In this document: in pieces, positions 1,985 to 40,867 of the stretch | How the letters are laid out: every line of letters starts with the position of its first letter | How positions within the stretch are numbered: position 1 is the first letter of the stretch | Assembly (NCBI GenBank): GCA_963837175.1 | Contig: CAWIMJ010000034.1 | Span: forward strand, 32,001 to 96,000 | From: an uncultured Nitrososphaeraceae archaeon | GTDB taxonomy: Archaea > Thermoproteota > Nitrososphaeria > Nitrososphaerales > Nitrososphaeraceae | Direction: 5' to 3' | Length of the DNA stretch: 64,000 nucleotides | Program-made: the position numbers and the translations under genes | The notes under the pieces: model-generated | Database searches by the model: none | Told to the model about the DNA's origin: nothing | What the model saw: only the letters and a program-made list of their open reading frames with translations

Positions 1985-2280
1985 CTATCTTGTATGTACT
2001 CAAATCTCGGATACCTTCCTTCTGAATTTAAGATATTTATTTACCCCGGCTCTTATGCTAGTTCGGGGTCAAGCTGATCTTCAGTGGTCTCTGCTTGCAT
2101 TAAACCTTTGTACCCTTTCGTACCCTTTCCGGTATTTGGATTTCCTCCTGATTCCGCTGCAATGATGCCTCTTACTAAATAGGGATTTATTCCCACCTAA
2201 TCTTCTGATTCTCTCTATTTATGCTTAGATTGAAATCATACAGCGCATAATTAGGTCTAGACTGAGGTGACCTTTCAACA
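1985..2280 (-). pseudogene. Lytic transglycosylase (SLT-domain) remnant carrying a leader homologous to the 20943 gene; not in the ORF track
   Basis: Manual translation: 'VERSPQSRPNYALYDFNLSIN' then 'VGINPYLVRGIIAAESGGNPNTGKGTKGYKGLMQ...DP./TSIRAGVNKYL' (ES catalytic motif and GLMQ motif). Confidence 0.75.
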
Positions 2281-2342
2281 TTCATTGTCACGTTGATAAC
2301 TCTATAAGCTTGCGCTCAATAATCGTATAGACTTGCTGTAAC

Positions 2343-3471: not shown

Positions 3472-4345
3472 GAGCCTATCCCAAAAATAGATAGACATAT
3501 AGCTTGAAGATAATCTGCTTATAGATGTGACGTATAAGAGAAAGAAACATTTTCCAACTATCAGAAAAATTCCAGATGATTTATGGGAAGAGATCAAGCT
3601 AATACTTCCTCCAGAAAAATCAAATAAAACTATAGGGCGCCCTGTTGTCCCATTTAGAAGAGTTCTTGACGGTATTCTATATGTTTTAAGAACTGGATGC
3701 CAATGGAAGATGTTACTGAAAGAATATGGTTCTGGTTCTACATCTCATAGGCGGTTTCAACAATGGATAGTATCTAAAGTATTTCACAGATTATGGATTA
3801 GACTATTGAAAGTTTATGATGATCTTAGAGGTATTAAATGGACATGGCAATCGCTTGATAGTGTATCAGTGAAAGCTCCTTTAGGGGGGACATGATTGGT
3901 CCAAATCCTACTGATAGAGGCAAATTGGGAACTAAGCGTCATGTACTGACAGACCAACGTGGCATTCCAATATCTGTTGTCATTACATCTGCAAATACAC
4001 ATGACATGAAGGCTGCAACAGATACACTGGATAGTGTGGTAGTTGAAAGATCGTTAAAGAAACAGAATCTGTGTCTTGACAAAGGATACGACTTTCCAGA
4101 AATAGAAAAAGAATCTATCAATAGAAGGTACATCCCGCATATCCGTCACAGAGGAGAAGAGAAAAAAGGATTGATAAAGATAGGATACATGGCAAAGAGA
4201 TGGGTTGTAGAAAGAACTAACTCGTGGCATAATAGGTTTAGGAAATTACTAGTAAGGTATGAAAAGAAGTCAGAGAACTATCTTGCACTGGTTTGTTTAG
4301 CTTGCTGTATTATTGTCTACAGGAGGATAATTTTGGGATAGGCTT
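3472..4345 (+). mobile_element. IS5-family element (IS427/IS1031-like), 874 bp, TTA target duplication
   Basis: TIRs GAGCCTATCCCAAAA / TTTTGGGATAGGCTT, with TTA on both sides. Confidence 0.9.
3527..4341 (+). CDS. IS5-family transposase in two overlapping ORFs (3527-3895, 3892-4341), probable frameshift at the G run
   Basis: Motifs 'ILYVLRTGCQW', 'DRGKLGTKRHVLTD', 'LDKGYD', 'RWVVERTNSW'. Confidence 0.9.
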
Positions 4346-6987: not shown

Positions 6988-7050
6988 TTATAATTATTAT
7001 TACCTACTTTTACGGTATTTTTGAGCGTAAATTGTGACTGTATATGGATG
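6988..7050. repeat. ~63-bp direct repeat, copy 2, overlapping the integrase start codon
   Basis: Matches 5729-5792 and ends in ATGGATG, the first bases of the integrase ORF. Confidence 0.9.
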
Positions 7051-7964
7051 GCTTAAAAACACTAGTCAACTCTGGTTCATTCGAACCAACCTTTTACAAA
7101 AATATAAACTTGGATGATATGCTCAAATATCTTTTAACTATTCGAAAGCTTGACAACAAACATGTAAAAGACATAGTGAGTTACTTTAGACGTTTCCGAG
7201 ATCTATTCTTTGGACCTCAGCCTGAGGAGATTCTCAAATTCAGCCCACCTAAAAGAGGATGGATTATACAAGCTATGCGTCATTTCGGTAACTATTATTA
7301 TTATAAAACTAATAATCCAGAATGTAAAGAACTGATTGAGAAAATTATCAATCGATATGGACTAAATATTGGTTTGGATATGCATCAAAGGATTTACATT
7401 GTAGATGACAACTTCGTTAGTAATAATGTTAAGGTTCTTCTGGCAATTCAAGGTGATATAGGTCAAACAGTCAAAGTTGGCTTGTTCACTGGTTTAAGAG
7501 AGGATGAAATTATCTACATTCATAATAAAGAACTATATAGTAATCTCGGAGGTTGTTCTTGTAATAAACTCCATGCAGTCACCAAACCAAATGGTCTAAC
7601 TGTTGTTGTCATCAATTGGTTTAGGGGTCACAAAAAATGCTATTTCACTATTTTACCAACCATCATGCGGGAGCAATTCAGAAACATTCCAAACTTCACT
7701 CATGTAGATATTGATATTGCTCATAAACTTACAAAGAAAATTGCTAATCTTATGTTTGTAGAATTAAGAAAACTACACTATAATGTCATGAGAAGAGTCA
7801 TGGATATGAATGAGGCTGATATCTTGGCTGGTCGTGCTAAATCAGTTTCTGCTAAACATTATGCTATGTATGAGTTGGATAAACTTACAGAGGCTTATGC
7901 TCAGGCATGGAATAAATTTGGAGTAAATATCTCTGAATCAGATGAAATCAACTATAGCATATGA
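7044..7964 (+). CDS. Archaeal tyrosine recombinase/integrase (SSV1-like catalytic motifs)
   Basis: 'GLFTGLREDEI' (Arg box I), 'ELRK', 'DILAGR' and 'KHY' (catalytic Tyr). Confidence 0.8.
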   Translation: MDGLKTLVNSGSFEPTFYKNINLDDMLKYLLTIRKLDNKHVKDIVSYFRRFRDLFFGPQPEEILKFSPPKRGWIIQAMRHFGNYYYYKTNNPECKELIEKIINRYGLNIGLDMHQRIYIVDDNFVSNNVKVLLAIQGDIGQTVKVGLFTGLREDEIIYIHNKELYSNLGGCSCNKLHAVTKPNGLTVVVINWFRGHKKCYFTILPTIMREQFRNIPNFTHVDIDIAHKLTKKIANLMFVELRKLHYNVMRRVMDMNEADILAGRAKSVSAKHYAMYELDKLTEAYAQAWNKFGVNISESDEINYSI

Positions 7965-20942: not shown

Positions 20943-22067
20943 ATGAAAAATCTCATTACTAAAAGTAAAGGAGATCCATATAACGAAAGATTATTTTTTC
21001 GATACTACCCTTTTAATAAAATCACATATACGAAAATTGAAAGGTTACCTCAGTCTAGACCTAATTATGCACAGTATGCCTTTAGTCTTAGGATAGATAC
21101 AGAATCAGAAAATACATTTCCATTTAAGAAAATAAATTACATTCGTAGTGAAGCGGATTCCTCAACGATGTATAGTTATCCTTCTAAACAGTCTACTGCC
21201 GGCTCACCCTTGCCTGCTTCGCCATTATTATCATTAGGTACGCTGAGAGTTATGACAGAGCAATACGGCCTGCCCGAGAGACTCCGTTTCGCTTATAAGT
21301 TTACAGCAGATGATGCCCTATGGACAGCGCGATTTATCTTAGGTGAGGCTGGTGGTGACGATAATGCAGACAATCATGCAGTTATTTGGGCTATGTTTAA
21401 CCGCTATGCCTTTTTTACCCACTATGGTAGTCCATGGGGTGGCACATACAAAACATTTTACAGTTATTTAAGAAGTTACTCGACACCATTACAGTCGCCA
21501 CTAAATAGTTGGGCGGCAGCACAGCGTGTAATGAATCGTCCAGATTTTGTAAGGTTTGGTGGTTACTATACGGGAAAGAAGGTCCCAAAAGCATGGCGGG
21601 ACATCATCCCGATTGGTCAGGCCGGGATGTTCCTTAGACTCCAGAGCACTCCTTGGCATAAATTACCAGAAAAGGCCAGGAGGGTAGCAGAACAAATAAT
21701 GAAAGGTAATATTTCTAACCCAGGAGTAGGGGTTGCAACTGAATTTGCTCATACGTTTGTGATACTCAGGCAAAATATGCAAAACCTAGCAAAAGAACAA
21801 AATAAAAGAAATCCTGCTTCAAATATTGACATAAGTAAAATAAAACCTAGTCTTCAGGAGTGGGAACAGTTCAATGAAAAATATAAGAAAGGATGGAAAT
21901 GGATTGGTCATGTTTCAAATCTCCACCAGATGTCAAAAAACACCTTTTTCAAAGATATGCGTCCCATTCCTAGTGATATACGTAAAAGACTTTATTCAGA
22001 TTTACCATCAGAAGTAGTTCAGAGTACTCCCGCCGTAATCTCTTTCGAAAATACTACTTTTAGGTAA
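20943..22067 (+). CDS. Putative cell-wall hydrolase (SleB/Hydrolase_2-like) with 'PFKKIxY' leader
   Basis: 'LWTARFILGEAGG...AVIWAMFNR' matches the SleB-type catalytic Glu helix (LARxIxGEAxG...AVxxVxxNR). Intact ORF, no signal peptide. Confidence 0.6.
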   Translation: MKNLITKSKGDPYNERLFFRYYPFNKITYTKIERLPQSRPNYAQYAFSLRIDTESENTFPFKKINYIRSEADSSTMYSYPSKQSTAGSPLPASPLLSLGTLRVMTEQYGLPERLRFAYKFTADDALWTARFILGEAGGDDNADNHAVIWAMFNRYAFFTHYGSPWGGTYKTFYSYLRSYSTPLQSPLNSWAAAQRVMNRPDFVRFGGYYTGKKVPKAWRDIIPIGQAGMFLRLQSTPWHKLPEKARRVAEQIMKGNISNPGVGVATEFAHTFVILRQNMQNLAKEQNKRNPASNIDISKIKPSLQEWEQFNEKYKKGWKWIGHVSNLHQMSKNTFFKDMRPIPSDIRKRLYSDLPSEVVQSTPAVISFENTTFR

Positions 22068-23236: not shown

Positions 23237-23968
23237 CTAGGTCACCAGTGATGGCATCTCTTTCATATGTGTCTTGACTTTTTTCTTGTACTCTTGCTGC
23301 ATTGGTTGTTGTTCTTGTACTTGTTGTCCTTCTTGTAGTATTTCCTTGTTTAGTTGCTGTTCTGGTTTCAGTTCCTGCGGCTTTGGTTGTTGTTCTTGTA
23401 CTTGTTGTCCTTCTTGTAGTATTTCCTTGTTTAGTTGCTGTTCTGGTTTCAGTTCCTGCGGCTTTGGTTGTTGTTCTTGTACTTGTTGTCCTTCTTGTAG
23501 TATTTCCTTGTTTAGTTGCTGTTCTGGTTTCAGTTCCTGCGGCTTTGGTTGTTGTTCTTGCTGTTGTACTAGAACATCTACTCCTTCCGCACTTATTTCT
23601 TCAATTTTGTCAGTTCCTTCCCACACATACTGCCAACTACCTTTTCCTGCATCATAAATTCTAATGATTTTTAATGATGCTTCCTCATCTAGTTCTTTTA
23701 ATTTTATAGATGACGTGTTGAGTTCACCTACTGTTACAAATTCTTCATCTGTACTATTTTTAAGAGCTAGAATCTTTCCTGTATCGAAATGGAATTCAAT
23801 ACATCGATAAAGACCTTCTATTGGATCATTTCCGGTGGACTGAATATTAACACTGCCTATAGAGGGATAATCTAATGAGATCTTAGACCCTTCTGTTACT
23901 GTAGGCGCAGGTCTTCCTCCTTTCCTTTCATTTAGAAATTTAATGTGAAGTGTGGATTTAGATACCAT
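23237..23968 (-). CDS. Hypothetical protein with a Q/E-rich 27-aa tandem repeat; last gene of the operon
   Basis: 11-bp gap to the upstream gene, with GAGGT before the ATG. Confidence 0.7.
   Translation of the reverse strand: MVSKSTLHIKFLNERKGGRPAPTVTEGSKISLDYPSIGSVNIQSTGNDPIEGLYRCIEFHFDTGKILALKNSTDEEFVTVGELNTSSIKLKELDEEASLKIIRIYDAGKGSWQYVWEGTDKIEEISAEGVDVLVQQQEQQPKPQELKPEQQLNKEILQEGQQVQEQQPKPQELKPEQQLNKEILQEGQQVQEQQPKPQELKPEQQLNKEILQEGQQVQEQQPMQQEYKKKVKTHMKEMPSLVT
23302..23560. repeat. 81-bp tandem repeat x3.2 (QEQQPKPQELKPEQQLNKEILQEGQQV)
   Basis: Identical units start at 23302, 23383 and 23464, with a partial unit at 23545. Confidence 0.95.
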
Positions 23969-23979
23969 TTATAATACCT

Positions 23980-24861
23980 CTATGTAGTTTGGGTTGGCAG
24001 AGGTCTACGTCTCTGGGTCAAGGCAGTCTGGAAGAAGTCTACACCGGTAACCTGATACCATGTGCTTGACAGCTCTTTGAAAAAGAGGGAATCATCGTAT
24101 AACGATGTTGCCGCCCTAATATTCCATTGCGTTTGCTCCACCCTGTTAAGGAATACTTCCATTCTTTTTGCGAGTATGAAAAGATACATAGACTCTTTTG
24201 CCACAGGCACTTTCAGTCTCTGTCCTAGTTCTATTAATCGTGAATTTCTTCCTTGTGACCGAATATTAAGCCTCTGAACTATAAATTTATCATTGTCCAA
24301 CCATTGAAGTAAATCCTGAAATGCAACGGCCCAATAGGAAGCTATATCTTCAATTTCATTGTAGGTTCGATTTATCAACATCTTTTGAAAATCATCTAAT
24401 AATTCGGCAAGAGCACTAGGATTTGATAATTTCTCAACGGTAATTTGCTTATCTAGTACTCCCTGGGCTATGTTAAGCATTATTGATTCAAAGGTCTTGT
24501 TAAATTGTCCATTATATGCTTGTACCCTTTCGAAATTATTTTCCTTGCCTCTAATGACGTATCCAAACATTCTCCAATATGCATTATATCTTAAGCGTTC
24601 TAGATCTAGATCTCGAGTGATCGATGACGATGGCATAGGAAAGATCAAATTTGCTGTCTCCTTTAGCCCTTCTATCAGATCACAATCGTCTTTTCTATTG
24701 AGCCTAAGAACATCATCCGAAATAAAAAATGACCTCAATAAGACTCTAAAAACTTCAACTATTCCAGTAGACTCAATAAAGTATGAGTAAATCAAATGTC
24801 GCCTATTAGAAGGGCATATAGCAGCATTATTAGTCGTTAACTGTGTATTGCTATAACTCAA
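23980..24861 (-). CDS. Conserved-looking helical hypothetical protein ('HLIYSYFIEST...RYNAYWRMFG')
   Basis: Intact 293-aa ORF with ATGA overlap with the upstream gene. The motifs recall uncharacterised bacterial proteins (from memory, unverified). Confidence 0.75.
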   Translation of the reverse strand: MSYSNTQLTTNNAAICPSNRRHLIYSYFIESTGIVEVFRVLLRSFFISDDVLRLNRKDDCDLIEGLKETANLIFPMPSSSITRDLDLERLRYNAYWRMFGYVIRGKENNFERVQAYNGQFNKTFESIMLNIAQGVLDKQITVEKLSNPSALAELLDDFQKMLINRTYNEIEDIASYWAVAFQDLLQWLDNDKFIVQRLNIRSQGRNSRLIELGQRLKVPVAKESMYLFILAKRMEVFLNRVEQTQWNIRAATSLYDDSLFFKELSSTWYQVTGVDFFQTALTQRRRPLPTQTT

Positions 24862-26300
24862 ATCGGTAACCCCCCATATGATCGAGCCAATCTTATGAGA
24901 CCTCCAGGCCTTCCTAACTGATTGTCTAAGCTAGACAGATTTCTTTCATAAGTAGCGTACTCCAATTCTAATCGGGCAGAAGAATTGGACTGGTCAATAT
25001 TTTGGTTTGGCCCTCCTGCTAAAACTACTGACGGGCCGCCTAGGCTTCCTGGAAACATGGCATCAAAATTTACACCCTTAGGCGGGTTTCTTCCAGATGC
25101 AAAATCAGGTATTTCTGAGAATTTTTGTTCGTAGGTCAATATCCACCATATGATGAAAAGATAATCAAACCAATTATCATTATCATACTTTAGCCATGAA
25201 TCAGTTGTTGCCAGAACCTGCGTATCCAAGCCTCTTAGACTTCTAAAAGTGTTTATAAAAATGCTAGGTAATGGATTATTAAGTACATTTCTTAGATCAA
25301 TCAATCTTTCTTGCCTTATAGCGCCGCGCAAGTAATCTATTACAGTATCTAACTCGTCAGCGAAAAGGTCTTGCTGACTCGTAGACGGTATAATAGTTTT
25401 GAATGAGCTTTCGATCGATGGCAATTGTTTTTCAATATAATTGATACCATCTGGTGTACCAGCATTTAGAGAAAACAAACGACCCCATATGTCACGGATG
25501 CTATTAAATACCTCTAAATTGAAACCACCAGAGCTATCATCCTGCACAAGATCAAATAATTGATGAAATATGTTTTCCAATCCAACCTTTCTAATTATGT
25601 CATCAGCATCAGGTGCTAGCGGGTCATCAACACATTGTCCTGTTGTTGGATCTTTATGCTGTCCTGGTGGACATTCTACTGACGGAGCCTGTGGCTGACC
25701 TCTAAGAAGTAGATCATCTACAATTGTTATCTCATTATTATCTTCGTAGTCATCATATCGTGGATCGGATATTAATAGATCAACATATATGTTAGGTTTT
25801 ACAGGATCAGGTACAGGGATGTTGCCAATGCGAAGTACTATATTTTTCAGGATTTCTTTTACCTCATCTTGGAGTGGTATACCTGAGCTAGCCTCTTCCA
25901 AATCATTAAGAAATTGAAGCGCTCTAGTATTCCTTCTTGCTTCTTCCAGACCCCTTAGGAAGCGTGGGTCTGAATGTTCTGGAAAATTATCCACTATTTG
26001 TCTTATGTCCCTATAATTAGGAGATAATTCATAAAACCTTGTCGGAAAAAGCAGTGAATATGCCCAAATGCTGTGCAACAGTTGAGCTATTCTAAAATTA
26101 GTGTATGCAGTTGCAATATTCTTATCCTCGTAAATTTGTACAGTAAAAGCATAAACGGTATTATTAGCCCTTTTTTCCTGCAATGGAATAGTGATTTGAT
26201 TTAGGGTACCGCATGGACACGAGCTGGCTACACGCTGATTAGGGCAAAGTTCGAGGATGATCTGCATTTTTGGATTAATATCATTCCTCCAATCAATCAC
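24858..26300 (-). CDS. Hypothetical protein, acidic, with an internal 'CPPGQHKDPTTGQC' loop
   Basis: 480-aa ORF tightly linked to its neighbours (13-bp gap, 4-bp overlap). Confidence 0.75.
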   Translation of the reverse strand: MIDWRNDINPKMQIILELCPNQRVASSCPCGTLNQITIPLQEKRANNTVYAFTVQIYEDKNIATAYTNFRIAQLLHSIWAYSLLFPTRFYELSPNYRDIRQIVDNFPEHSDPRFLRGLEEARRNTRALQFLNDLEEASSGIPLQDEVKEILKNIVLRIGNIPVPDPVKPNIYVDLLISDPRYDDYEDNNEITIVDDLLLRGQPQAPSVECPPGQHKDPTTGQCVDDPLAPDADDIIRKVGLENIFHQLFDLVQDDSSGGFNLEVFNSIRDIWGRLFSLNAGTPDGINYIEKQLPSIESSFKTIIPSTSQQDLFADELDTVIDYLRGAIRQERLIDLRNVLNNPLPSIFINTFRSLRGLDTQVLATTDSWLKYDNDNWFDYLFIIWWILTYEQKFSEIPDFASGRNPPKGVNFDAMFPGSLGGPSVVLAGGPNQNIDQSNSSARLELEYATYERNLSSLDNQLGRPGGLIRLARSYGGLPI

Positions 26301-26313
26301 AACAGAAATACGC

Positions 26314-26778
26314 CTATAACTTATAGGTTCTTTTTACGATTGCGATACGACGTGGTGGATTATTATTAGGATCTAGAAAAACTACGTCTGAGTCTTTGTC
26401 TATCCAGCTTTCATCGGATGGAAATATCCAGTCATATTTTTGAGCAGATATCCTATAAAGGATTTTCGCAAGACTCTTAAATTTTCTAATCTCTGCTTGG
26501 TTGTTTAAAGGGTTGAAGAGAGAGATTAGATCTAGTGAAGCTAACATGGGTAGTCCAATAGAAAATTGAGAATTACCGTTGGCATTACCAAGCAGATACG
26601 GGTCATCAATGGATTCAATCTCTTTACGAAGAGTACGCGCTGACTGTAGAATTTCATAATCTAATGCTATATACTGGATCAATCCTTGTCTCATTATATG
26701 GTTAATGTGTCTGAATTCCTCTGACCCTCGGTCGTTTATGCTATCAATAAAACTTCCTCCATTCATAGTAGAGCTCAT
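26314..26778 (-). CDS. Hypothetical protein
   Basis: 154-aa ORF preceded by a GGAGGT Shine-Dalgarno-like sequence. Confidence 0.7.
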   Translation of the reverse strand: MSSTMNGGSFIDSINDRGSEEFRHINHIMRQGLIQYIALDYEILQSARTLRKEIESIDDPYLLGNANGNSQFSIGLPMLASLDLISLFNPLNNQAEIRKFKSLAKILYRISAQKYDWIFPSDESWIDKDSDVVFLDPNNNPPRRIAIVKRTYKL

Positions 26779-26996
26779 TTTATTTTAACCTCCAATATTT
26801 GAACCTTAAATGATTCATTGAAAGATGGAGATGATGATTCTGCAGAAGATGAAGGGAAATCAGTTTCTAGTAGCTGTTGTTCTTGCTCAGATTCTCTGTA
26901 GATTATTTTTTTAAATGGATAAACCTCACTTTTTCCAGATTCAAAATATTCATTACTTCCATAGCCGCTGTTTTGAAAACGGGATCCTCTTTCCAC
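26775..26996 (-). CDS. Leader-only 73-aa peptide, a copy of the N-terminus of the 31572 protein
   Basis: 'MERGSRFQNSGYGSNEYFESGKSEVYPFKKIIYRESEQEQQLLETDF...' is nearly identical to the start of 30541-31572. Confidence 0.55.
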   Translation of the reverse strand: MERGSRFQNSGYGSNEYFESGKSEVYPFKKIIYRESEQEQQLLETDFPSSSAESSSPSFNESFKVQILEVKIK

Positions 26997-27035
26997 AACA
27001 ACGTAACTGTGTGCAACTATATCAGTTTTTTTCTG
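26807..27035. repeat. 229-bp direct repeat (upstream region plus leader), copy of 31383-31611
   Basis: Near-identical from TAAATGATTCATTG to ATCAGTTTTTTTCTG. Confidence 0.95.
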
Positions 27036-27181
27036 AGATCTATTTTCTTAATTGATATTCTTCACATAGGTCAGTTAGAGCGAATATTGAGTGTTTTAGG
27101 TTTTCAATAAACAAATAATTATATCCCAAAAAATGATAACAATAAAAGGATGGTTAGTAATAAGTAGCAATCAACCTCATA

Positions 27182-28489
27182 TCACGCAATCTTCGCTCCT
27201 CCTAGAGCTAGAGACACTAACCATTTGTACATCTGTTCTATAATCCAGTAATGCGACCTTCCACCAAACATCTGTATTAAACGGAAGCCGAGCAAGGCAA
27301 CAATAGGATGATTAACAAGCATTTTGGCATCGACAGAGAAATTAGAAAAGTCTTTGCCTAAAAACTCCCTTAATCTTGTAGGAGATGAAAAGTGCCAAGG
27401 TAAAAGCATGTCTAGACTTTTACCAGAAAAAGCCTTCATTTTAGTTCTAGAAATAGCATTGCATATTACAGGTAGCAAAGGTATTGAATCGGTTATGACT
27501 TTTGATGCTTCAGCACCTCCAGCACTGATGGGATATAAAATAGACAAAACCCTATCTAAATCATCCCACGGTCCTCTGCCATATGCGATTTTACATGCAC
27601 TGATTCCAAGCATCAATCTGATTATTCCTGCTGGATGAGGATCCCCTTGAATGACTCTCGCGATCCTACGAGCACTGCCTGCAACAACCTCATAAAGTCC
27701 AAGTATTGAGGCAATATTACTTTGATGTAGAGAGTAAAAATCAGCGGCAATTTCGCTTGCCCATGATTCCCATAAATGTGCTAAATATTTCGGTCCACCA
27801 GCGGCTAGTATACTATTGTATAGTAATTCACCTAGCTCTTGGTTCCAGTTTGTTATGTGTGCAACCTGATGACCACATTCATGTAATATGGAAGTTAGCC
27901 TCGGAAGAGGAATAGCGGAGCGAACTACCTTAATAACTGCCGCAGGGTTTGTATTGGAATCCCATAAATAAATTCCAGCTTTAAGAATAGAAGCTCCTTC
28001 TCCTCTGTCTTGATAGCAAATAACAGTAGGAACTTCATGACCTAATGGTTGCAGTACTTGCTGTAAGCTAGCATACGCTATTTGATCACATCCTCTGAGT
28101 AGCATTCCCATATCACGCTCTGAACGTGTATGAAGCAAATCTACGTAATATTCGAAAACTTGCTCAGTACTGAAGTAATGATCTCTGACACTTTGTAAGT
28201 TTGAACGGAAGAGAAGGAGTCCTTCCATATTTCTGATGTTAGTGAATTCTTTTTTTAACTCCGCCAGGTGTGCCTTCAAGCCTGCGGTTCTGGTTTGAAA
28301 AGATCTTTCAATAGCCAACCTTTGTTTATTACCTAAATGCCTTCTAGAGGCTTCTGAGACATTAGCTATGGGGTTGACAAGGCCATCCACTGCTACAGTT
28401 AAGCTGTTCAAGGATAATCGTTGCAAAAACAAACAGTTGTTAAAATCCTTCTCTATAACATTAGAGCCCTGAAGTCTGCTGCTGCTCAT
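27182..28489 (-). CDS. HEXXH-motif putative zinc metallopeptidase-like protein
   Basis: 'SILHECGHQ', downstream 'WASEIAADFY' (third-ligand ExxAD pattern) and 'DPHP'. Confidence 0.7.
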   Translation of the reverse strand: MSSSRLQGSNVIEKDFNNCLFLQRLSLNSLTVAVDGLVNPIANVSEASRRHLGNKQRLAIERSFQTRTAGLKAHLAELKKEFTNIRNMEGLLLFRSNLQSVRDHYFSTEQVFEYYVDLLHTRSERDMGMLLRGCDQIAYASLQQVLQPLGHEVPTVICYQDRGEGASILKAGIYLWDSNTNPAAVIKVVRSAIPLPRLTSILHECGHQVAHITNWNQELGELLYNSILAAGGPKYLAHLWESWASEIAADFYSLHQSNIASILGLYEVVAGSARRIARVIQGDPHPAGIIRLMLGISACKIAYGRGPWDDLDRVLSILYPISAGGAEASKVITDSIPLLPVICNAISRTKMKAFSGKSLDMLLPWHFSSPTRLREFLGKDFSNFSVDAKMLVNHPIVALLGFRLIQMFGGRSHYWIIEQMYKWLVSLALGGAKIA

Positions 28490-28500
28490 GCCCCTTCTAA

Positions 28501-31500
28501 TTACAGTCTATATCCTGGTAATGGTTCTATAGGTGATAAAGTGATAGATGACAAGAGTCTTGGGAGATTCCAAGCCAGCGATGCAATTGTCAACCTTCGG
28601 AGATTGGATATAAAACCACTAGGCAGTATAAGGCTCGATGTAAGCGTTATCCCATCTGGGTGAGCAGATATGCTAGATATTCGTGCAGCTATCTTTCCAA
28701 TGCTTCTGTTCAAGCGCCTTATCACCAATCCAAGAATCAATGAAACTATTTGCTTTGATATCCATGAGGGTATTTTCAGTCTTCTCAGCTGCTTATACAA
28801 TATGTTGGATCCTAGCGTCTTTATAATATCAGATACTGACTTGTTAAGATCTGCAATCATTCTGGTTCTTGCCACGCTCTTAACACTACGTATCGTAAGA
28901 TCATTCAAATATATTCTGAGTTCAAGTCTAGTTCTATCAAATCGTATACTAATGTCATTGCTTCTCACAGCTCCCTTGTCTGGCAAAGGAGCAGAAGGGG
29001 TTTCCTGCATTGGCCTTCCTACAGGCCTTAAAATTTTTACGAAGCAATAGTTTCTCCAAGATGGATCATATCGCAGGATCGATGGCCTTAGTTTACGAAT
29101 TCTTCTGCGTCTTGATAAATATGGGTTATTTAGCAATAATCCTGCAGCAGTAGGAGTCAATGGTATTATTTGGTCTATATGCAAAGCACTCATTCCACCA
29201 ACATAGTCGCGAGCAATCATAGCCAGCCTAGTTCCGACCGGCAGACTTTGGAAAACACGTATACTCACACGAACAGGTGTTGTACCATCCCAACCTTGTG
29301 TCTTACGTAAGATATCAAGTAACGTAGTTCCTCCAAAGCTACGTACACGTGAGGCTAAAGTTGGATACAGGGTTAATTCGGATCTTTGAGATAAAACCTT
29401 GTATGTTTTTCGAGGAATCCACATAATATTAGCTGGGATTCTTCTTCTAGACACAAATTCTTCACGTAACGCTTGGCCTGGAACATTGTCTTTGATAGAT
29501 TCTAGAATAGACTCCTGAACATGAGCCTCCAATACTTGGTCTTCTCCTTCCAAAATGGATTCTGGCAGCGCTGCCTATCCTCTCGACTGATTCTGTCACA
29601 ATATTTGCTATCGTTTCTGCTACTAGTCTATTTTGATTGGGTAATTCTCTTGGGTTTTCTAAAGAGAGTAATCGAAGACCAGCATCTGCAATAACGCGGC
29701 TGAGGGGATTAGCAAAATTCTGGCCGATAAGTGGTTTTAATAACTTAGCAACAAGTTTCGCAAGAAAACCCACTACCCGCTGTCTTCCAATGAGTCTTAT
29801 TCCTATTCTTAATACCGGAAGAAGAGCAGGAGCAAACTCCTGTGTAAGTCTTTGAAGATTAGGTGGATATTCGCTTACTAAACCATTAATAAAATTATTG
29901 CGAGCCTCATTTACGACAAGGGCTTCGTTTACACTTCCAACAAACTCCTCCTCCTCACTTTCCGCTTCAGGAGTATAATATTCTGGAGTAAAGCCTGAGG
30001 TCTGAGCTTCAGGAGTATAATATTCTGGAGTAAAGCCTGAGGTCTGAGCTTCAGGAGTATAATATTCTGGAGTAAAGCCTGAGGTCTGAGCTTCAGGAGT
30101 ATAATATTCTGGAGTAAAGCCTGAGGTCTGAGCTTCAGGAGTATAATATTCTGGAGTAAAGCCTGAGGTCTGAGCTTCAGGAGTATAATATTCTGGAGTA
30201 AAGCCTGAGGTCTGAGCTTCAGGAGTATAATATTCTGGAGTAAAGCCTGAGGTCTGAGCTTCAGGAGTATAATATTCTGGAGTAAAGCCTGAGGTCTGAG
30301 CTTCAGGAGTATAATATTCTGGACTAGCTTTCCATCTCTGCAAAGAGCTCTCTTTCAAAATCTCGTTCAAATTCATAGACCTGCTGGAATTCATGTCCAT
30401 GATATAGTTCTTCTTCCGCTTCACCAGTAAAGCTCTCATTATAGATATTCTCATCTTCATCTTCAAATTCTAGTTCTGTTTCATCCAGAGTTTCAGCACG
30501 CAATACGTTTGAACCGGTTTCTGCTGTTTCCAACTCGCTTTCAGATGGTGGCGTAGTAGGCGGTTGTTCTACTGGTGGTTGTTCTACTGGTGGTTGTTCT
30601 ACTGGTGGTTGTTCTACTGGTGGTTGTTCTACTGGTGGTTGTTCTACTGGTGGTTGTTCTACTGGTGGTTGTTCTACTGGTGGTTGTTCTACTGGTGGTT
30701 GTTGGTACTGGTGGTTGTCCATAACCAAGGGCTCCGAGCGCCTTCTGAGCTATAGCACGATATTGTGGTGGAATATATCGCAATCCTAATCTAAGCACTT
30801 TTCTCACTAGAGGTCTAATACGACGCCCAATTGTTCCAAGTATTCTTCTTAGAATCAACTTAACAGCAGCTGATCCTATCACACTCTTAGCAACACTAAT
30901 GCCCTTCCTTGCTAAACTGAGACCTTTCCCTAAAACTCTTTTTGCCTTTTTCAACCATTTACCCAGAAATTCCTCAGGCTGAACTGGTTGAAATGAGTCA
31001 ATGACACGTTTGGCAGCTTCGTATTCCATTTCAGGTTGTATGTTGGACTGAACATAATTAGAAAAACGTTCAAGCTCATTCTGAATATTTCTCACCGTTC
31101 CACCATAGGTTACTTCATAGAATTGATTGAACATATTCTCGAAATTAGGATTTCTGAGGACCTCTTCAAGCTCACCACCAGTTCCTGTTGTATGACTTAC
31201 ATAGTTAGTAAACTTTGATTCAGCTTCACTTGCCAGCTGTACAAGTGACTGTTCAAATTCATGATCATGTACTTGGTTAGAAAAGAGTTCGAATTCAAAT
31301 TCTCGATCTATCATCTGATATTCTTGTGCTTGTTGTTGTTGTTCTGTCTCACCTGTAGTTATCGACATATTTTCTGTACCAGTAAATGATTCATTGAAAG
31401 ATGGAGATGATGATTCTGCAGAAGATGAAGGGAAATCAGTTTCTAGTAGCTGTTGTTCTTGCTCAGATTCTCTGTAGGTTATTTTTTTAAATGGATAAAC

Positions 31501-31572
31501 CTCACTTTCAGCAGACTCAAAATATTCATTACTTCCATATCCGCCGCTTTGAAAACGGGATCCTCTTTCCAC
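28501..31572 (-). CDS. Single ~1020-aa protein (acidic leader, cationic amphipathic helices, tandem repeats) split into four ORFs by three 1-bp insertions
   Basis: Removing one base near 30705, 30331 and 29575 gives continuous reading 'GYGQPPVQQPPVE', 'EMEASPEYY' and 'ERIAALPESILEGEDQ'. Confidence 0.7.
29964..30323. repeat. 42-bp perfect tandem repeat x8.5 (TPEAQTSGFTPEYY)
   Basis: Unit GGAGTATAATATTCTGGAGTAAAGCCTGAGGTCTGAGCTTCA, no spacers. Confidence 0.95.
30562..30718. repeat. 15-bp tandem repeat, about x10 (QPPVE)
   Basis: Unit GGTTGTTCTACTGGT. Confidence 0.95.
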
Positions 31573-32104
31573 AACAACGTAACTGTGTGCAACTATATCA
31601 GTTTTTTTCTGGGCTTTGATATTTTTAAAATCAACTCTTTTGAACGTAATTTACTTCTGTTAATATTAGAATATATTAAGACATTAATAAACATCTAAGT
31701 CTAAATGGTAAATCAAAAAAGATTTTTCTTAAGTAGAGTTAAGCTTCTGATTTTTTATTTTGTCATACCGAAAGGATGTATATGCGTATTTATGATACTC
31801 AACAAAAACATTCGCTTAAATCCTAATTTTGGCATATTAAGCAATTCATGGTAATGTCATCATCAATTATCAATTAGCTTCTACCTAAGATTATTACTAT
31901 TATAAAGCAAGATGTAGTGTTTTTACTATAATAGAATAGAACATATATTATTACGATAACTTGAGTGCCTACGATAAGCTAAACATATCCGGAACAAATA
32001 TAGATTCCAATACAATTATTGATCCAACAATAGGCATATTTTCCAATAAAAAAATTTACCATTATTTGTCTTGTTATCAGTTATTTTAATTCCATCCATG
32101 TAGA

Positions 32105-33604
32105 GTGGCTATAATAATAATCTTTAACTCTACTTCTTGCTTAACGCCACTGTTGATTGGTAATATAGATCGTTTGGTTGATTCCCAAATGTATAACCTT
32201 GTCTTGGACCTTCAGAAATTAATTCGCCAGCCTAGCGTTTCTGCAAAAAATCATGGTTTGTTAGAGTGTGCGTATCTTGTCTTAACCGTAATGCAAAAAG
32301 CAGGAATAAAGGCTCAAGTATTGCACCTCGAAAGTTCCAAAAATGCAGCTCCAATTGTTTATGGAGAGGTTAGATCAAGATCAAATCCAAGATCAAAGAC
32401 AGTTTTATTTTACAATCATTATGATGTCCAGCCTGTAGAGCCCTATGAACTATGGAAAGGAGATCCATTCGGTGGAAATATCAAAGATAATAAAATTTTT
32501 GGCAGGGATCTTCAGATGATAAAGGCGAGCTCATCACTAGAATAAAGGCAGTAGAGTACTTACTTAAAGAAACTGGAGATGTGCCTTGCAATATAAAATT
32601 TGTTGTAGAAGGAGAAGAGGAAATCGGGAGTATTCATCTTGAAAAGTATCTTTCACAATTTGCCAAGAAATTTTCATGTGACGCGATTATCTGGGAATCT
32701 GGATATATTGATGCAAAAGATCGACCTATTATAGGCCTTGGAACAAAAGGGATCTTATATGTAGAACTGATATCAAGAGGACCCTCTATCGATGTTCATT
32801 CAAGTCTAGCAGTTTTAATAGAAAATCCTGCATGGCGTATCATAAAAGCAGTTAATACATTGTGGGATGATTCAAAAGCTCAGATCCTGATAAAAGACTG
32901 GTATAAAGAAGTACGAGGATTTACTCCTGAGGAGCTCTCTTATTTTCAGACAGCCACTACCCTTTGATGAAGACGGATTCAAAAATAAATATGGCATAAA
33001 TAGACTCGTCGCAGATGCAAGAGGGACTAAAATCAATTTAGCGTTGATGGGAATGCCAACATGCAATATTTCTGGTATAACTTCTGGCTATACTGGTAAA
33101 GGTCTAAAAACAGTTATCCCTTCTATGGCCAAGGCAAAGATTGATTTTCGGCTTGTTCCAAATATGAGTCATGAAAAACAGTTTGAACTACTAAGAAATC
33201 ATCTTTATGAAAAAGGTTTCCAAGATATTACGGCAGTCTTTATTCATGGAGCATCATCGTCTAGAAGCCCACTGAATCATCCTTTTGTAATACAGATAAA
33301 GGAGTCTGCTATGAATAACTTTGGTGCTATGCCAGTTATTCATATGTCATCGTCTGGTGCAGGTCCCATGCACATATTTGTTAGGACATTTGGAGTTCCC
33401 TGTGTTTCTATTGGTTGCACTTACATATTTTCTAACATTCATTCTCATAATGAATATGCAAGAATGGACTTGTTGAATAGGACTACAAAATGGATCGCAA
33501 ATATAATTAAGAGATTTGCAAATTCTTATAACAAGTCGAAAATTGAATCGAGTGTCTTATCTGATTTGGTATCTGAAGAGTTAGGCATCTGGAAGAACTT
33601 TTAA
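32105..33604 (+). pseudogene. M20/M25/M40-family metallopeptidase (DapE/ArgE-like) split into three ORFs
   Basis: 'FYNHYDVQP', 'DDKG' (shifted frame), 'EGEEEIGS', 'DVHSS', 'HSHNE'. Confidence 0.85.
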
Positions 33605-35416: not shown

Positions 35417-36286
35417 TTATAGCTTCCTCTTTTCTTTTAGCAATATATCAATTTGACCATGCAATATGTTTTTGTGTTGCATTAAGGTTTCATAAGCTAT
35501 CCAATTATCTTCAATTTCAGAAATGATTCCCCCAATTCTGTTTAAGGCAACCTTTAATGCAATAATAGATTTATCAAATGACCTTTGAGCTTTATGGTCG
35601 ATATCTACCATTTTGATGGCAGATAAGTAAGGTTCTTTGTTGTAATTGTAAGCTGAATTTTCCTTGAGATCTTTAACTAATTCACGTACTTTTCTTGAGG
35701 AAAAACGATTCTTTGATATTAATTGTGTTAGCTGAGATTGTTTATCCTTGTCGTCTAGAGATAACAATTCTTCTGCTACAGCTGTACTGATTGAAGAATT
35801 AGAAATTGAGTTCAGAACATCTAAAGGCAAATCTAGCAGTTTTATGCGCCTATGTACATAGCTCACACTCTTGCCTATTTTTGCAGATAGGTGAGAGATG
35901 CCACCCCAACCATGATCCATAATATAAGTTTTAAATGCCTGTGCTTCTTCTTTTGGATCTAATGTTTTTCTTTGTATATTTTCTATTAGTGAGATTTCAA
36001 ATGCTTCTTTATCATCAAGATCTAGTACATGGCAAATAATTTTTCTCCAACCTAGGCTTTTACATGCATGATATCTTCTATTGCCTGAAACAATTTCAAA
36101 ATATGACTCTTTCGTTCTTACAAGTATTGGTTGTAAAAGCCCTTTCTCCTTTATGGAGTCAGCAAGTTCGATAGAGGTATCATCACTCATATTACGAGAT
36201 AAATAAGAAGATCGTTTTATCCTAGAAAGGTCAATATCTTCTATTATGCCTAGTATCAAGGGAGAAGAAGAAAATAGTTTTGACAT
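35417..36286 (-). CDS. ParB/RepB/Spo0J-family protein
   Basis: 'ELADSIKEKGLLQPILVR...IVSGNRRY', 'ENIQRKTL', HTH 'KIGKSVSYV'. Confidence 0.9.
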   Translation of the reverse strand: MSKLFSSSPLILGIIEDIDLSRIKRSSYLSRNMSDDTSIELADSIKEKGLLQPILVRTKESYFEIVSGNRRYHACKSLGWRKIICHVLDLDDKEAFEISLIENIQRKTLDPKEEAQAFKTYIMDHGWGGISHLSAKIGKSVSYVHRRIKLLDLPLDVLNSISNSSISTAVAEELLSLDDKDKQSQLTQLISKNRFSSRKVRELVKDLKENSAYNYNKEPYLSAIKMVDIDHKAQRSFDKSIIALKVALNRIGGIISEIEDNWIAYETLMQHKNILHGQIDILLKEKRKL

Positions 36287-36753: not shown

Positions 36754-37362
36754 TTGATACTTACCAAAAGAAATAGGACGTCTGCAAAAGATATTGGTTA
36801 TGGTTTATATCTATATTATCTTGATCTTTCATATAGAAATACAGCAAAAGCATTATCCAGGTTTGTAAAACGAAGCCACGTTGCTGTCTGGAAATGGATT
36901 CAAAAATATAAACCTGAAAGAATATCATACAGACGAAGAAAAGTTTCTGAATTGGTAATTGATGAAACACAAATCAAAGTAGGCAATGAATACTTCTGGT
37001 TATGGGTTGCAATCGAACTTATCAACAAATCAATTCTTGATATTTATCTTTCAGCAGAAAGAAACATGTTTGTTGCACAGAATTTTATTCGAAATCTGGT
37101 AAACAAATATGGAAAGCATCCAGTTTCTACAGATGGTGGTACTTGGTATCCGTATGCTTGTAAATTCTTAAAATTAAGACATCATCTTCATTCTTCTTTC
37201 GAGAAAAGCATCATAGAGAGAACAATTCAATACATAAAAGACAGAATAGAAAATTTCGATGATTACTTTCCGTGTAGAAAGAAAAGGTGTAAACTAAATC
37301 ATGTTACCAGCTGGTTCAATGTATTTGTTGACTCATATAACACTAATGGTTCCTTAAGTTAA
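36754..37362 (+). CDS. IS6-family DDE transposase
   Basis: 'LSYRNTA', 'VIDETQIKVG', 'VSTDGGTWY', 'IERTIQYIKDR'. Confidence 0.9.
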   Translation: MILTKRNRTSAKDIGYGLYLYYLDLSYRNTAKALSRFVKRSHVAVWKWIQKYKPERISYRRRKVSELVIDETQIKVGNEYFWLWVAIELINKSILDIYLSAERNMFVAQNFIRNLVNKYGKHPVSTDGGTWYPYACKFLKLRHHLHSSFEKSIIERTIQYIKDRIENFDDYFPCRKKRCKLNHVTSWFNVFVDSYNTNGSLS

Positions 37363-39742: not shown

Positions 39743-40867
39743 ATGTATAGTCCGAAAAACGATAATGGACGTAAGCCGGAAACCTCTATTCCGCTTCAAG
39801 TTAGTTGCGGCTTTGATGGCGTTGGTCAAAATGTCTTGGTGAGCGAGACCGACTTGCGTGATGTAATTTCGACCAATGCCCTAGCTGACAAAACAAACTG
39901 GGTGGATGAAGCGTGCAAACTCATCTTTGAGTCAGCTGGTCCACGATCCGGATTCGGATTTCTACTCCGTTACTGGCTATCTCGTTATAGCGACATCCCA
40001 CCCGCGACTCTCCTAGCATTAATGGCCGCCGCGATTGATCCCCCTGTTACAGCTACCTTCTACAACTTCTTGAATCCAGCGCTTACCGACGACCACGATA
40101 TCGACACAGAAGCAGATAGTATACGAAAGACGCTTATGGCGTCGGTACAAGACCCTGGTCTAGCCAATCTTGATACCTTAATCAAAAATGCCCTAAAAAG
40201 TGCTCGGAAATCTCATTTACCTCATTTATACGAAACCAAATGGAGCGCTGTTTACGTAGTCTCAATCATTAGAGGCGCTGCGATTCAACTCCAACTAGAG
40301 GCCATGGTCGGAAATTCTCATGAGGGAAAGGACAAATTGCTCTTAGCTGACTCATATCATAGTAGATACGTGTATAAAGCATATTCTCGCCGATTCGGCC
40401 CCGACCCAAGGAACGGAACTTACCACGCATTTGAGACTCAAGAATACCAGCCGGAAAAAGGTGATATAATTATTCAGGATATGGAGGCAGACAACATCGA
40501 CGACGTGCTGAAATTTGCAGAGATCCCAACCCGCCTTCATCCTGAAAAAGGTGATGATCCACCTCATCATACGCATGGAGACCTCGTGGTAGGAGTACAT
40601 CCAAATCACGATTGCGTAATAACACTTGGCGGCAATTTAGGGAAAGCATTTGAGGGAAGCGTGAGACGTCGCGCATACCCGTTAGATGCTGACGGACGTC
40701 TAATCGTGGACAGTAAGAGATTCTTCAGTAATGAGCTAAATGATGGAACTCTGCCTCCGCTTTCTGACGCTGCTGGCCCCTTCCGCAATAGCACCGGTAA
40801 GATATTCGCGTTATTGAGACCTGTCGTGGAATGCCATGAGATTCCGGCTCAGAAGGTTGACGAATGA
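39743..40867 (+). CDS. DUF2272-domain protein (CHAP/NlpC-like putative peptidoglycan amidase)
   Basis: 'WSAVYV', 'HSRYV', 'PEKGDII', 'HGDLVV', 'TLGGN...SV'; visibly more GC-rich than its flanks. Confidence 0.7.
   Translation: MYSPKNDNGRKPETSIPLQVSCGFDGVGQNVLVSETDLRDVISTNALADKTNWVDEACKLIFESAGPRSGFGFLLRYWLSRYSDIPPATLLALMAAAIDPPVTATFYNFLNPALTDDHDIDTEADSIRKTLMASVQDPGLANLDTLIKNALKSARKSHLPHLYETKWSAVYVVSIIRGAAIQLQLEAMVGNSHEGKDKLLLADSYHSRYVYKAYSRRFGPDPRNGTYHAFETQEYQPEKGDIIIQDMEADNIDDVLKFAEIPTRLHPEKGDDPPHHTHGDLVVGVHPNHDCVITLGGNLGKAFEGSVRRRAYPLDADGRLIVDSKRFFSNELNDGTLPPLSDAAGPFRNSTGKIFALLRPVVECHEIPAQKVDE

Follow-up and report, generated by a model that had tools for sequence, protein, structure and literature searches.

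A short N-terminal motif on the large core protein and the effectors of a widespread polymorphic effector system, traced from an archaeal locus

An uncultured archaeon of the family Nitrososphaeraceae carries, within a 64,000-nucleotide stretch of its genome (the window, which is the whole stretch analysed here), several proteins that share a short N-terminal leader. The leader of immediate concern is that of P0001, a protein of 374 residues. The question raised by this locus is why proteins with different enzyme parts should begin alike. The first-pass annotation had seen in the leader a targeting or cleavage tag recognised by a neighbouring operon. Comparative genomics ties the motif strongly to that operon, by association, whereas the targeting or cleavage role is still a matter of inference. 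The motif within the leader, called here the PF box, belongs to a gene cluster that is found in many bacterial phyla and in some archaea, where it marks the large core protein and most of the effectors encoded beside it.

Four proteins of the window bear the leader.

20943-21160, plus strand: leader of P0001, its first 72 residues, holding the PF boxes YPFNKITY (from about 21006) and FPFKKINYIRSE (from about 21117)
31509-31462, minus strand: box ESEVYPFKKITYRESE of P0002 (31572-30541)
26996-26775, minus strand: P0003, which carries KSEVYPFKKIIYRESE
12302-12285, 12203-12186 and 12176-12132, minus strand: ESESPF, EANPFE and ESVSPFRIIQYTEYE in the leader of P0004 (12386-10698)

In the translation of P0001, YYPFNKITY occupies residues 21-29 and ESENTFPFKKINYIRSE residues 54-70. 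Each string that had been quoted from these four proteins was found at its place in the translations. The pattern PF[KRN][KRI]I.Y has nine matches in the six-frame translation of the entire genome of 3,810,681 bases. Five of these lie within 21 kb of the window (10.7-31.6 kb), and the remaining four lie on four other contigs without E/S flanks. At the rate outside this 21-kb stretch, 0.022 matches would be expected in it, so that the Poisson probability of at least five is 4e-11. The DNA of P0003 is a copy of the start of P0002 (96% identity over 190 bases) and is therefore no independent case. The leader had been reported on separate proteins, which holds for P0001, P0002 and P0004. Counting these three independent proteins alone, the probability of at least three matches is 1.8e-6. 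The clustering of the motif is real and goes beyond chance.

Other parts of the initial description needed adjustment. The leader had been called acidic, which is true of P0002 (net charge -10 over the first 80 residues) and P0004 (-7) but not of P0001 (+5). The proteins had been called unrelated; they do differ in their enzyme parts, but all are members of one gene system. The claim that they have neither a signal peptide nor a twin-arginine motif was borne out. In P0001-P0004, the maximum 12-residue Kyte-Doolittle mean is at most 0.42 over the first 80 residues, and no RR occurs in the first 40. A hydropathy and residue scan of these N-termini thus found no feature of Sec or twin-arginine translocation (Tat) signals, neither a hydrophobic region nor RR.

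A minus-strand operon (31572-23237) adjoins the tagged effector genes.

28501-31572, minus strand: large core protein in four frames (w343, which is P0002, 31572-30541; w134, 30728-30324; w334, 30466-29462; w350, 29553-28501)
27182-28489, minus strand: HExxH protein, 435 residues, a predicted zincin-like peptidase at motif level
26775-26996, minus strand: P0003, a leader-only open reading frame (ORF) of 73 residues, with a stop that overlaps the ATG of the gene behind it
23980-26778, minus strand: third core protein in three ORFs (w154, 26778-26314; w480, 26300-24858; w293, 24861-23980)
23237-23968, minus strand: last operon gene, 243 residues, with 3.3 copies of an 81-base coding repeat

Is this operon peculiar to the archaeon? 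Eighty loci (numbered with the prefix L) were fetched from named genomes via homologues of the HExxH protein. They come from Bacteroidota, Actinomycetota, Acidobacteriota, Pseudomonadota, Myxococcota, Cyanobacteria, Paenibacillus, Nitrospirota, Planctomycetota, Verrucomicrobiota and others, and the archaea among them are Methanosarcina and Methanothrix. The cluster is present in Gram-negative bacteria, Gram-positive bacteria and archaea. Homologues of the HExxH protein in the database exceed 1000 and come from many lineages; a profile search of 1.84 billion proteins returned 1066 representative clusters at E<=0.001. The genes stand in a constant order: a protein of about 800 residues, the HExxH protein (about 420 residues), a variable small ORF, a protein of about 400 residues, and at least one large protein. 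The HExxH protein is present in 80 of 80 loci by construction and the ~400-residue protein in 77 of 80. The pieces of the window's large protein found matches in 71 (w334), 55 (w350) and 37 (w343) of the 80 loci. All-against-all clustering gave no further family in more than 22 of the 80 loci; the next commonest families, as far as they were examined, were regulators, kinases or additional effectors. A scan of metagenomes gave three more loci, of which L082 is the one close to the window.

The window operon can be read against this canonical form. Residues 89-287 of P0002 align to positions 54-238 of a profile made from 26 canonical ~800-residue proteins (E 7e-26), which places the P0002 box where the canonical box lies. 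The end of w480 together with w293 corresponds to the canonical ~400-residue protein, and the N-terminal part of the third core protein is lineage-specific. In L082, w154 and w480 are fused as one ORF, and the HExxH protein is 84% identical to that of the window. The ~400-residue family, in the alignment of 26 canonical members, starts with an invariant Met-Phe, usually MFR, and has long invariant stretches such as WDHLIYAYMIENT. The 243-residue last gene has no homologue in the 80 loci; its 81-base repeat encodes a unit rich in Q, E and K.

The proteins downstream of the canonical core differ from locus to locus. At least 10 different Pfam domains occur at this one locus position, and the effector domains include Amidase_2, DUF2272, SLT, PG_binding_1, M74, trypsin, glucosaminidase, VanY, M23 and 3D. 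Other effector types are a PhoD-like enzyme, a trypsin-like protease and a PLD-like sequence, the last recognised by eye and not by a profile. By their predicted domains, the downstream large proteins are polymorphic effectors, most of them peptidoglycan-degrading.

The PF box marks most of these proteins and the large core protein. In the ~800-residue proteins, its consensus is E-[ST]-P-F-[LAV]-[SDN]-[VLI]-[YF]-E. In the 73 proteins longer than 700 residues, PF occurs 147 times within the first 200 residues, and 121 of these are preceded by S or T. Exactly two boxes are present in 46 of the 73, and the two copies are usually 25-40 residues apart. Across an alignment of 26 large proteins that are 30-68% identical, F7, P32 and F33 never vary. 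In the AlphaFold model of the large protein, residues 1-46 have a predicted local distance difference test score (pLDDT) below 50 and are disordered; helices then extend to about residue 445 and are followed by an alpha/beta domain. Of the 53 effector-position ORFs, 36 contain [ST]PF within their first 150 residues; the other ORFs do so in 25 of 576 cases (Fisher p = 2.5e-29). Two or more copies are found in 13 of 53 and 2 of 576, respectively, and those two resemble further effectors. A hidden Markov model (HMM) trained on the large proteins alone gave at least 4 bits to 28 of 53 effector-position ORFs and 11 of 576 others. Of the seven ORFs outside the effector position that reached at least 8 bits, five are further downstream effectors. 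A strongly acidic linker lies behind the boxes in the effectors. The PF box is restricted to the large core protein and the effectors.

The window carries a variant of this box, with one extra residue between F and Y relative to the canonical form. The variant is well kept among its own relatives. In P0125 and P0126, which are 75-77% identical to P0001, both boxes are unchanged letter for letter. Both are also invariant in P0209, whose first ~178 residues are common with P0126 and which then continues into an SLT domain (21.8 bits, cut-off 21.3). P0207 has EDPFI and QTPFKIEYLQDE, and is probably encoded on the same contig as an HExxH protein 84% identical to that of the window, both contigs being recorded at 112,682 bases (ENA). 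As judged from these metagenomic relatives, the window variant is a lineage form that is conserved and portable among enzymes. The 17-residue canonical box HMM, run against the six-frame translation of the archaeon's own genome, gave at most 9.4 bits (E >1) and only in non-coding frames; a motif of this length is too short to scan a genome with.

Several effector genes of the window look damaged, and P0001, P0004 and the amidase stand alone, dispersed over 21 kb around the operon.

20943-22067, plus strand: effector P0001, 374 residues, with a C-terminal domain that recurs in effector-position proteins of L054, L080 and L002
9578-12386, minus strand: PhoD-like effector in two overlapping frames (P0004, 12386-10698, and 10798-9578), recognised by homology to L060
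18682-19779, minus strand: remnant of an Amidase_2-like effector, without a PF box and interrupted by an in-frame stop between 19408 and 19392; stop codons also lie upstream
2000-2290, minus strand: degraded leader fragment that shares 82% identity over 79 bases with the spacer separating the P0001 boxes

At its C-terminus, P0001 has a domain that matches the C-terminal ends of the L054, L080 and L002 proteins. In database homologues, domains of this type stand alongside M23, VanY, Amidase_2, DUF2272, M74 and PG_binding domains, and these partners suggest a wall-directed role for P0001. The label 'SleB-like' given to P0001 at first found no Pfam support: no Pfam family matched even at E<=5, and a sequence search of the PDB gave no meaningful match. 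In many effectors (P0125, P0126, P0209, P0211, L054 and L002), the P0001-type domain follows a small conserved segment (...LTDLIFYARHPER...EWLDIKNRLV...), which is deleted in P0001.

For P0004, the earlier label 'PhoD-like' is upheld through a homologue only. P0004 and the frame at 10798-9578 jointly match one 695-residue ORF of L060 at 41% identity, and that ORF matches Pfam PhoD with 27.4 bits (cut-off 27). The window pieces have no direct Pfam match at E<=5, and a PDB sequence search with the L060 ORF returned nothing meaningful. The amidase pieces match residues 490-753 of the 882-residue effector of L065; as had been claimed, the protein has an acidic start and no PF box. The fragment at 2000-2290 reads VERSPQSRPNYALYDFNL..., followed in another frame by an SLT-like stretch (...GLMQ...), and it looks like the wreck of another leader-bearing effector next to an insertion sequence (IS) element. 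Elsewhere in the window, 39743-40867 (plus strand) encodes a 374-residue protein with a weak DUF2272 match (24 bits, cut-off 27) and no PF box, which resembles the C-terminal part of the effector-position ORF of L041.

The HExxH protein is the member of the core whose chemistry can be predicted. Its invariant residues are H203-E204-x-G-H207-Q, W243-x-x-E246 and H285-P286 (the DPHP motif), and H203, E204, H207 and E246, the last in the place of a third zinc ligand, show no exception in sets of 18 and of 26 sequences. At the level of motifs, it is predicted to be a zincin-like metallopeptidase. The core proteins of the window and of the canonical loci have no match in Pfam, NCBIfam, PADLOC or PHROGs, and a PDB sequence-profile search found nothing meaningful for the HExxH, ~400-residue or large protein. 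The AlphaFold2 model of the HExxH protein has a pLDDT of 88. Foldseek gave no match against the PDB at E<=0.001 for the HExxH and large-protein models. With VIA-align, only the N-terminal helical bundle of the HExxH model was matched (residues 1-123; best Z 10.9, 92 residues), and for the large protein only a helical stretch (residues 291-440, best Z 7.2). Since the matches are confined to helical stretches, the fold searches are uninformative rather than negative for the catalytic part and for the C-terminal domain. A protein language model placed the HExxH protein near U49/M48 (score 0.77) and the ~400-residue protein near Peptidase_M13_N (0.87, low recognition); the PDB profile search confirmed neither. 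A complex prediction of the HExxH protein, the ~400-residue protein and leader residues 1-60 scored 0.12 against a mark of 0.32, and nothing was drawn from it.

What, then, would the leader do? On balance, the explanation that we favour is that the PF box is a tag that is read by the core and linked, through cleavage, to the release of effectors. The box is a conserved short linear motif in a disordered leader, and it would mark substrates. The system would be compact and horizontally mobile, consisting of a protein of about 800-1000 residues, a zincin-like HExxH protein and a helical protein of about 400 residues. Its substrates would be the large protein itself and interchangeable effectors, mostly peptidoglycan hydrolases. 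That some component of the core reads the tag is, in our judgement, quite likely, given the pattern of co-occurrence. Removal of the leader is suggested because a dedicated peptidase adjoins proteins with a common disordered leader. The reader may be the HExxH protein itself, which would dock on the unfolded leader and cut it off together with the acidic linker; we give this somewhat less than an even chance.

The charge pattern of the large protein invites a further step. Its net charge is -29 over residues 1-160 and then +11 over residues 161-200, a segment that is amphipathic and lysine-rich. The acidic N-terminal 160 residues would otherwise neutralise the cationic segment. Cleavage might free it to open the membrane of the producer, so that the leaderless wall-degrading enzymes could reach other cells. 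This step is unlikely as it stands, and the opening of a membrane by an unmasked segment is speculation. Methanosarcina and Methanothrix have no murein, and their loci carry murein-directed effectors; because of this, the enzymes most probably act on other bacteria rather than on the producer itself. In its widest form, the proposal is that an undescribed, envelope-independent pathway, made up of the three core proteins and the two-copy PF box, processes and releases leaderless lytic enzymes in bacteria of many phyla and in methanogens. We regard this wide form as doubtful, if a little less so than the opening of the membrane.

Several observations weigh against the proposal of a core-read, cleavage-linked tag. 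The reading of the tag by the operon is suggested by association in sequence data. The HExxH model matched no solved peptidase fold, in a search that was informative for the helical bundle alone. In canonical loci, 17 of 53 effector-position ORFs have no [ST]PF. Seven of these 17, all actinobacterial (L029, L032, L037, L050, L067, L070 and L077), have instead an N-terminal W-P-x-[RK]-x-D-[VI]-[FWL], a pattern that was written post hoc and occurs in 1 of 576 ORFs elsewhere. The large protein of the actinobacterial loci retains SPF, and effectors and large protein therefore need not share a box. In the window, the canonical box model gives negative bits to P0002 and P0003 and 2.3 bits to P0004. 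Because of these poor scores and the extra residue, the equivalence of the two boxes rests on position and architecture. The window's effectors also look damaged: P0001 lacks an 82-residue segment that P0125 and P0126 have, the PhoD-like gene is broken into two frames, and the amidase is interrupted by an in-frame stop and has no leader.

Nor does the model account for the leader-only ORF P0003. L082 has a leader-only ORF of 77 residues (2635-2868) with the same box and the same ATGA overlap. The small ORFs between the HExxH and ~400-residue genes of canonical loci bear no PF box, and P0003 is thus without a canonical counterpart. A database search with the 73-residue leader matched no longer protein; the search carries little weight, as P0002 itself was not returned.

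The proposal of cleavage has to be compared with other uses of the same leader. The strongest competitor holds that the box is an export or targeting signal that is read uncut, with the core proteins forming or feeding a new translocation route. We think it unlikely. In its favour, the box is at the extreme N-terminus, disordered and in two copies, like other secretion signals; the cargo, which lacks Sec and Tat signals, has to get out of the cell; and the cluster occurs in Gram-negative bacteria, Gram-positive bacteria and archaea. Against it, the one large protein examined has no evident membrane-spanning segment (maximum 40-residue hydropathy mean 0.51), and no ATPase or channel family is conserved across the loci. 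The invariant HExxH...E site would be hard to account for without proteolysis.

The box could also be an assembly tag, by which effectors and large protein dock on a common partner to form a multi-enzyme particle that is released whole. The same box does occur on a scaffold-sized protein and on enzymes, and effectors often stand in tandem (the five of seven high-scoring ORFs outside the effector position). Oligomerisation found no support in this analysis, however, and actinobacterial effectors bear a different box from their large protein, so that we consider an assembly tag improbable.

More improbable still is a leader that nothing reads. It would be a constant 5' handle, a relic of recombination events that exchange enzyme cassettes, kept by descent and gene conversion. 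The 190 bases shared by P0003 and P0002 and the long constant region of P0209 and P0126 with its abrupt divergence are what such shuffling would leave. An unread handle sits badly with P and F that are invariant across phyla in proteins 30-68% identical while the flanking residues vary, and with a box that recurs on proteins otherwise dissimilar. The last alternative, a chance or compositional effect of acidic low-complexity N-termini, can point to the E/S-rich flanks and to the duplication among the five instances, but it is refuted by the five matches against 0.022 expected, by the probability for the three independent proteins, and by the conservation of the motif in relatives. Two further candidates were tried and rejected: a defence system or suicide module (no PADLOC hit, and murein-directed effectors in archaea), and an accessory of an extracellular contractile injection system (eCIS) or of a type VI secretion system (no tail-like genes conserved nearby).

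The state of the window's genes bears on how they should be read. The large gene has three frame changes, which adjoin tandem repeats of 15 bases (10.4 copies at 30562-30718) and 42 bases (8.6 copies at 29964-30323). Contigs from other soil metagenome runs were compared over 24700-31600. Three runs from as many studies, an RNA library among them, lack one base at 30704; one run has two extra bases behind 30325; and one run lacks a base at 29574. By coordinate arithmetic and stop positions, the three changes together would yield a single open frame from 31572 to 28503 of about 1023 codons. Because the indels of other runs would restore one frame, the breaks are assembly errors or strain-specific lesions. 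The junction between w480 and w293 is identical in a contig of run X1. The metatranscriptomic run X15 has contigs on 11 of 30 bins of 24700-31600, including 30690-31365; these were not counted as proof of expression, since RNA libraries can contain DNA. Bins that no contig of the compared runs covers are uninformative. Next to the operon, 32105-33604 (plus strand) holds an M20/M25/M40 peptidase gene spread over three ORFs (146, 128 and 186 residues), which is either a pseudogene or a further assembly indel error.

The island is flanked by transposase genes, an integrase-like gene and a ParB gene.

3527-4341: IS4/5-type transposase, in two ORFs
7044-7964: integrase-like gene
35417-36286: ParB gene
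36754-37362: IS240-type transposase

The HExxH gene was found in 0 of the 440 other lineage genomes searched (40 relatives, six of them of the same genus, and 400 of the phylum). The mobile genes at its flanks fit a horizontal acquisition of the island, which for this genome would be an acquired weapon island.

Full-text literature searches, with supplements outside their scope, returned no description of the cluster or the motif, and the effector system, widespread as it is, is apparently undescribed. Should a component of the core prove to read the tag, the tag would be what defines the substrates of a widespread antibacterial effector system. A two-copy PF box beside the cluster would then be an easy guide to new lytic enzymes and other effectors in genomes. 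It may also indicate a route by which enzymes free of signal peptides exit cells with very different envelopes, archaea included, and the leader, being portable, might carry foreign cargo. Should the envelope-independent pathway be real, it would amount to a new system of protein delivery or release that has a substrate signal of its own.

Parts of this arrangement are familiar from other systems. In precursors of cationic antimicrobial peptides, an anionic propiece is removed by a protease. The large protein likewise has an acidic N-terminus (-29) before a cationic segment (+11) and an adjoining protease gene; it is, however, a protein of about 800 residues with a folded C-terminal domain, and the likeness lies in the charge pattern alone. 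Cargo of eCIS, including the Photorhabdus virulence cassettes (PVC), has N-terminal packaging signals, and internal proteins of phage T4 have a capsid-targeting sequence that is removed by the prohead protease. Here too, a short disordered N-terminal signal stands on unrelated cargo, and that of T4 is removed by a dedicated protease. In contrast to both, the 80 loci have no conserved genes for a sheath, tube, baseplate, capsid or scaffold, and the core proteins have no PHROG hit.

The effectors themselves have counterparts among the peptidoglycan hydrolases that serve as weapons, archaeal ones included, in the account of Strock et al. (2025, PLoS Biol 23:e3003235), as far as the pertinent part of that paper goes. 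As in those enzymes, PG_binding and catalytic domains are combined in a modular way, and murein-free archaea carry them, which implies bacterial targets. The archaeal Woldo and Danwoldo described there carry Tat signal peptides, whereas the enzymes of the present system have no Tat signal and come with a three-gene core and a PF-box leader.

The closest comparison is with polymorphic toxins, which have N-terminal trafficking modules and releasing peptidases according to the portion of Zhang et al. (2012, Biol Direct 7:18) that treats them; the likenesses and differences below refer to that portion. A constant N-terminus with interchangeable C-terminal enzymes is common to both, as P0126 and P0209 illustrate with their ~178 shared residues, and so are an associated metallopeptidase and horizontal spread across phyla into archaea. 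No LXG/WXG100 domain, typical of type VII secretion, was found with Pfam in 10 effector proteins or in the window proteins, and the PVC-metallopeptidase domain had no Pfam hit at E<=0.01 in effectors or core proteins. The PVC-metallopeptidase described by Zhang et al. lies within the toxin chain and has HExxHxxQ-E, whereas the present peptidase is a separate gene with HExGHQ. No type II, V, VI or VII secretion or PVC apparatus genes are conserved nearby, the N-terminal part is a short linear motif and not a globular domain, and the large core protein bears the same tag as the effectors. In kind, the system belongs with polymorphic effector systems that pair an N-terminal module with an associated peptidase.

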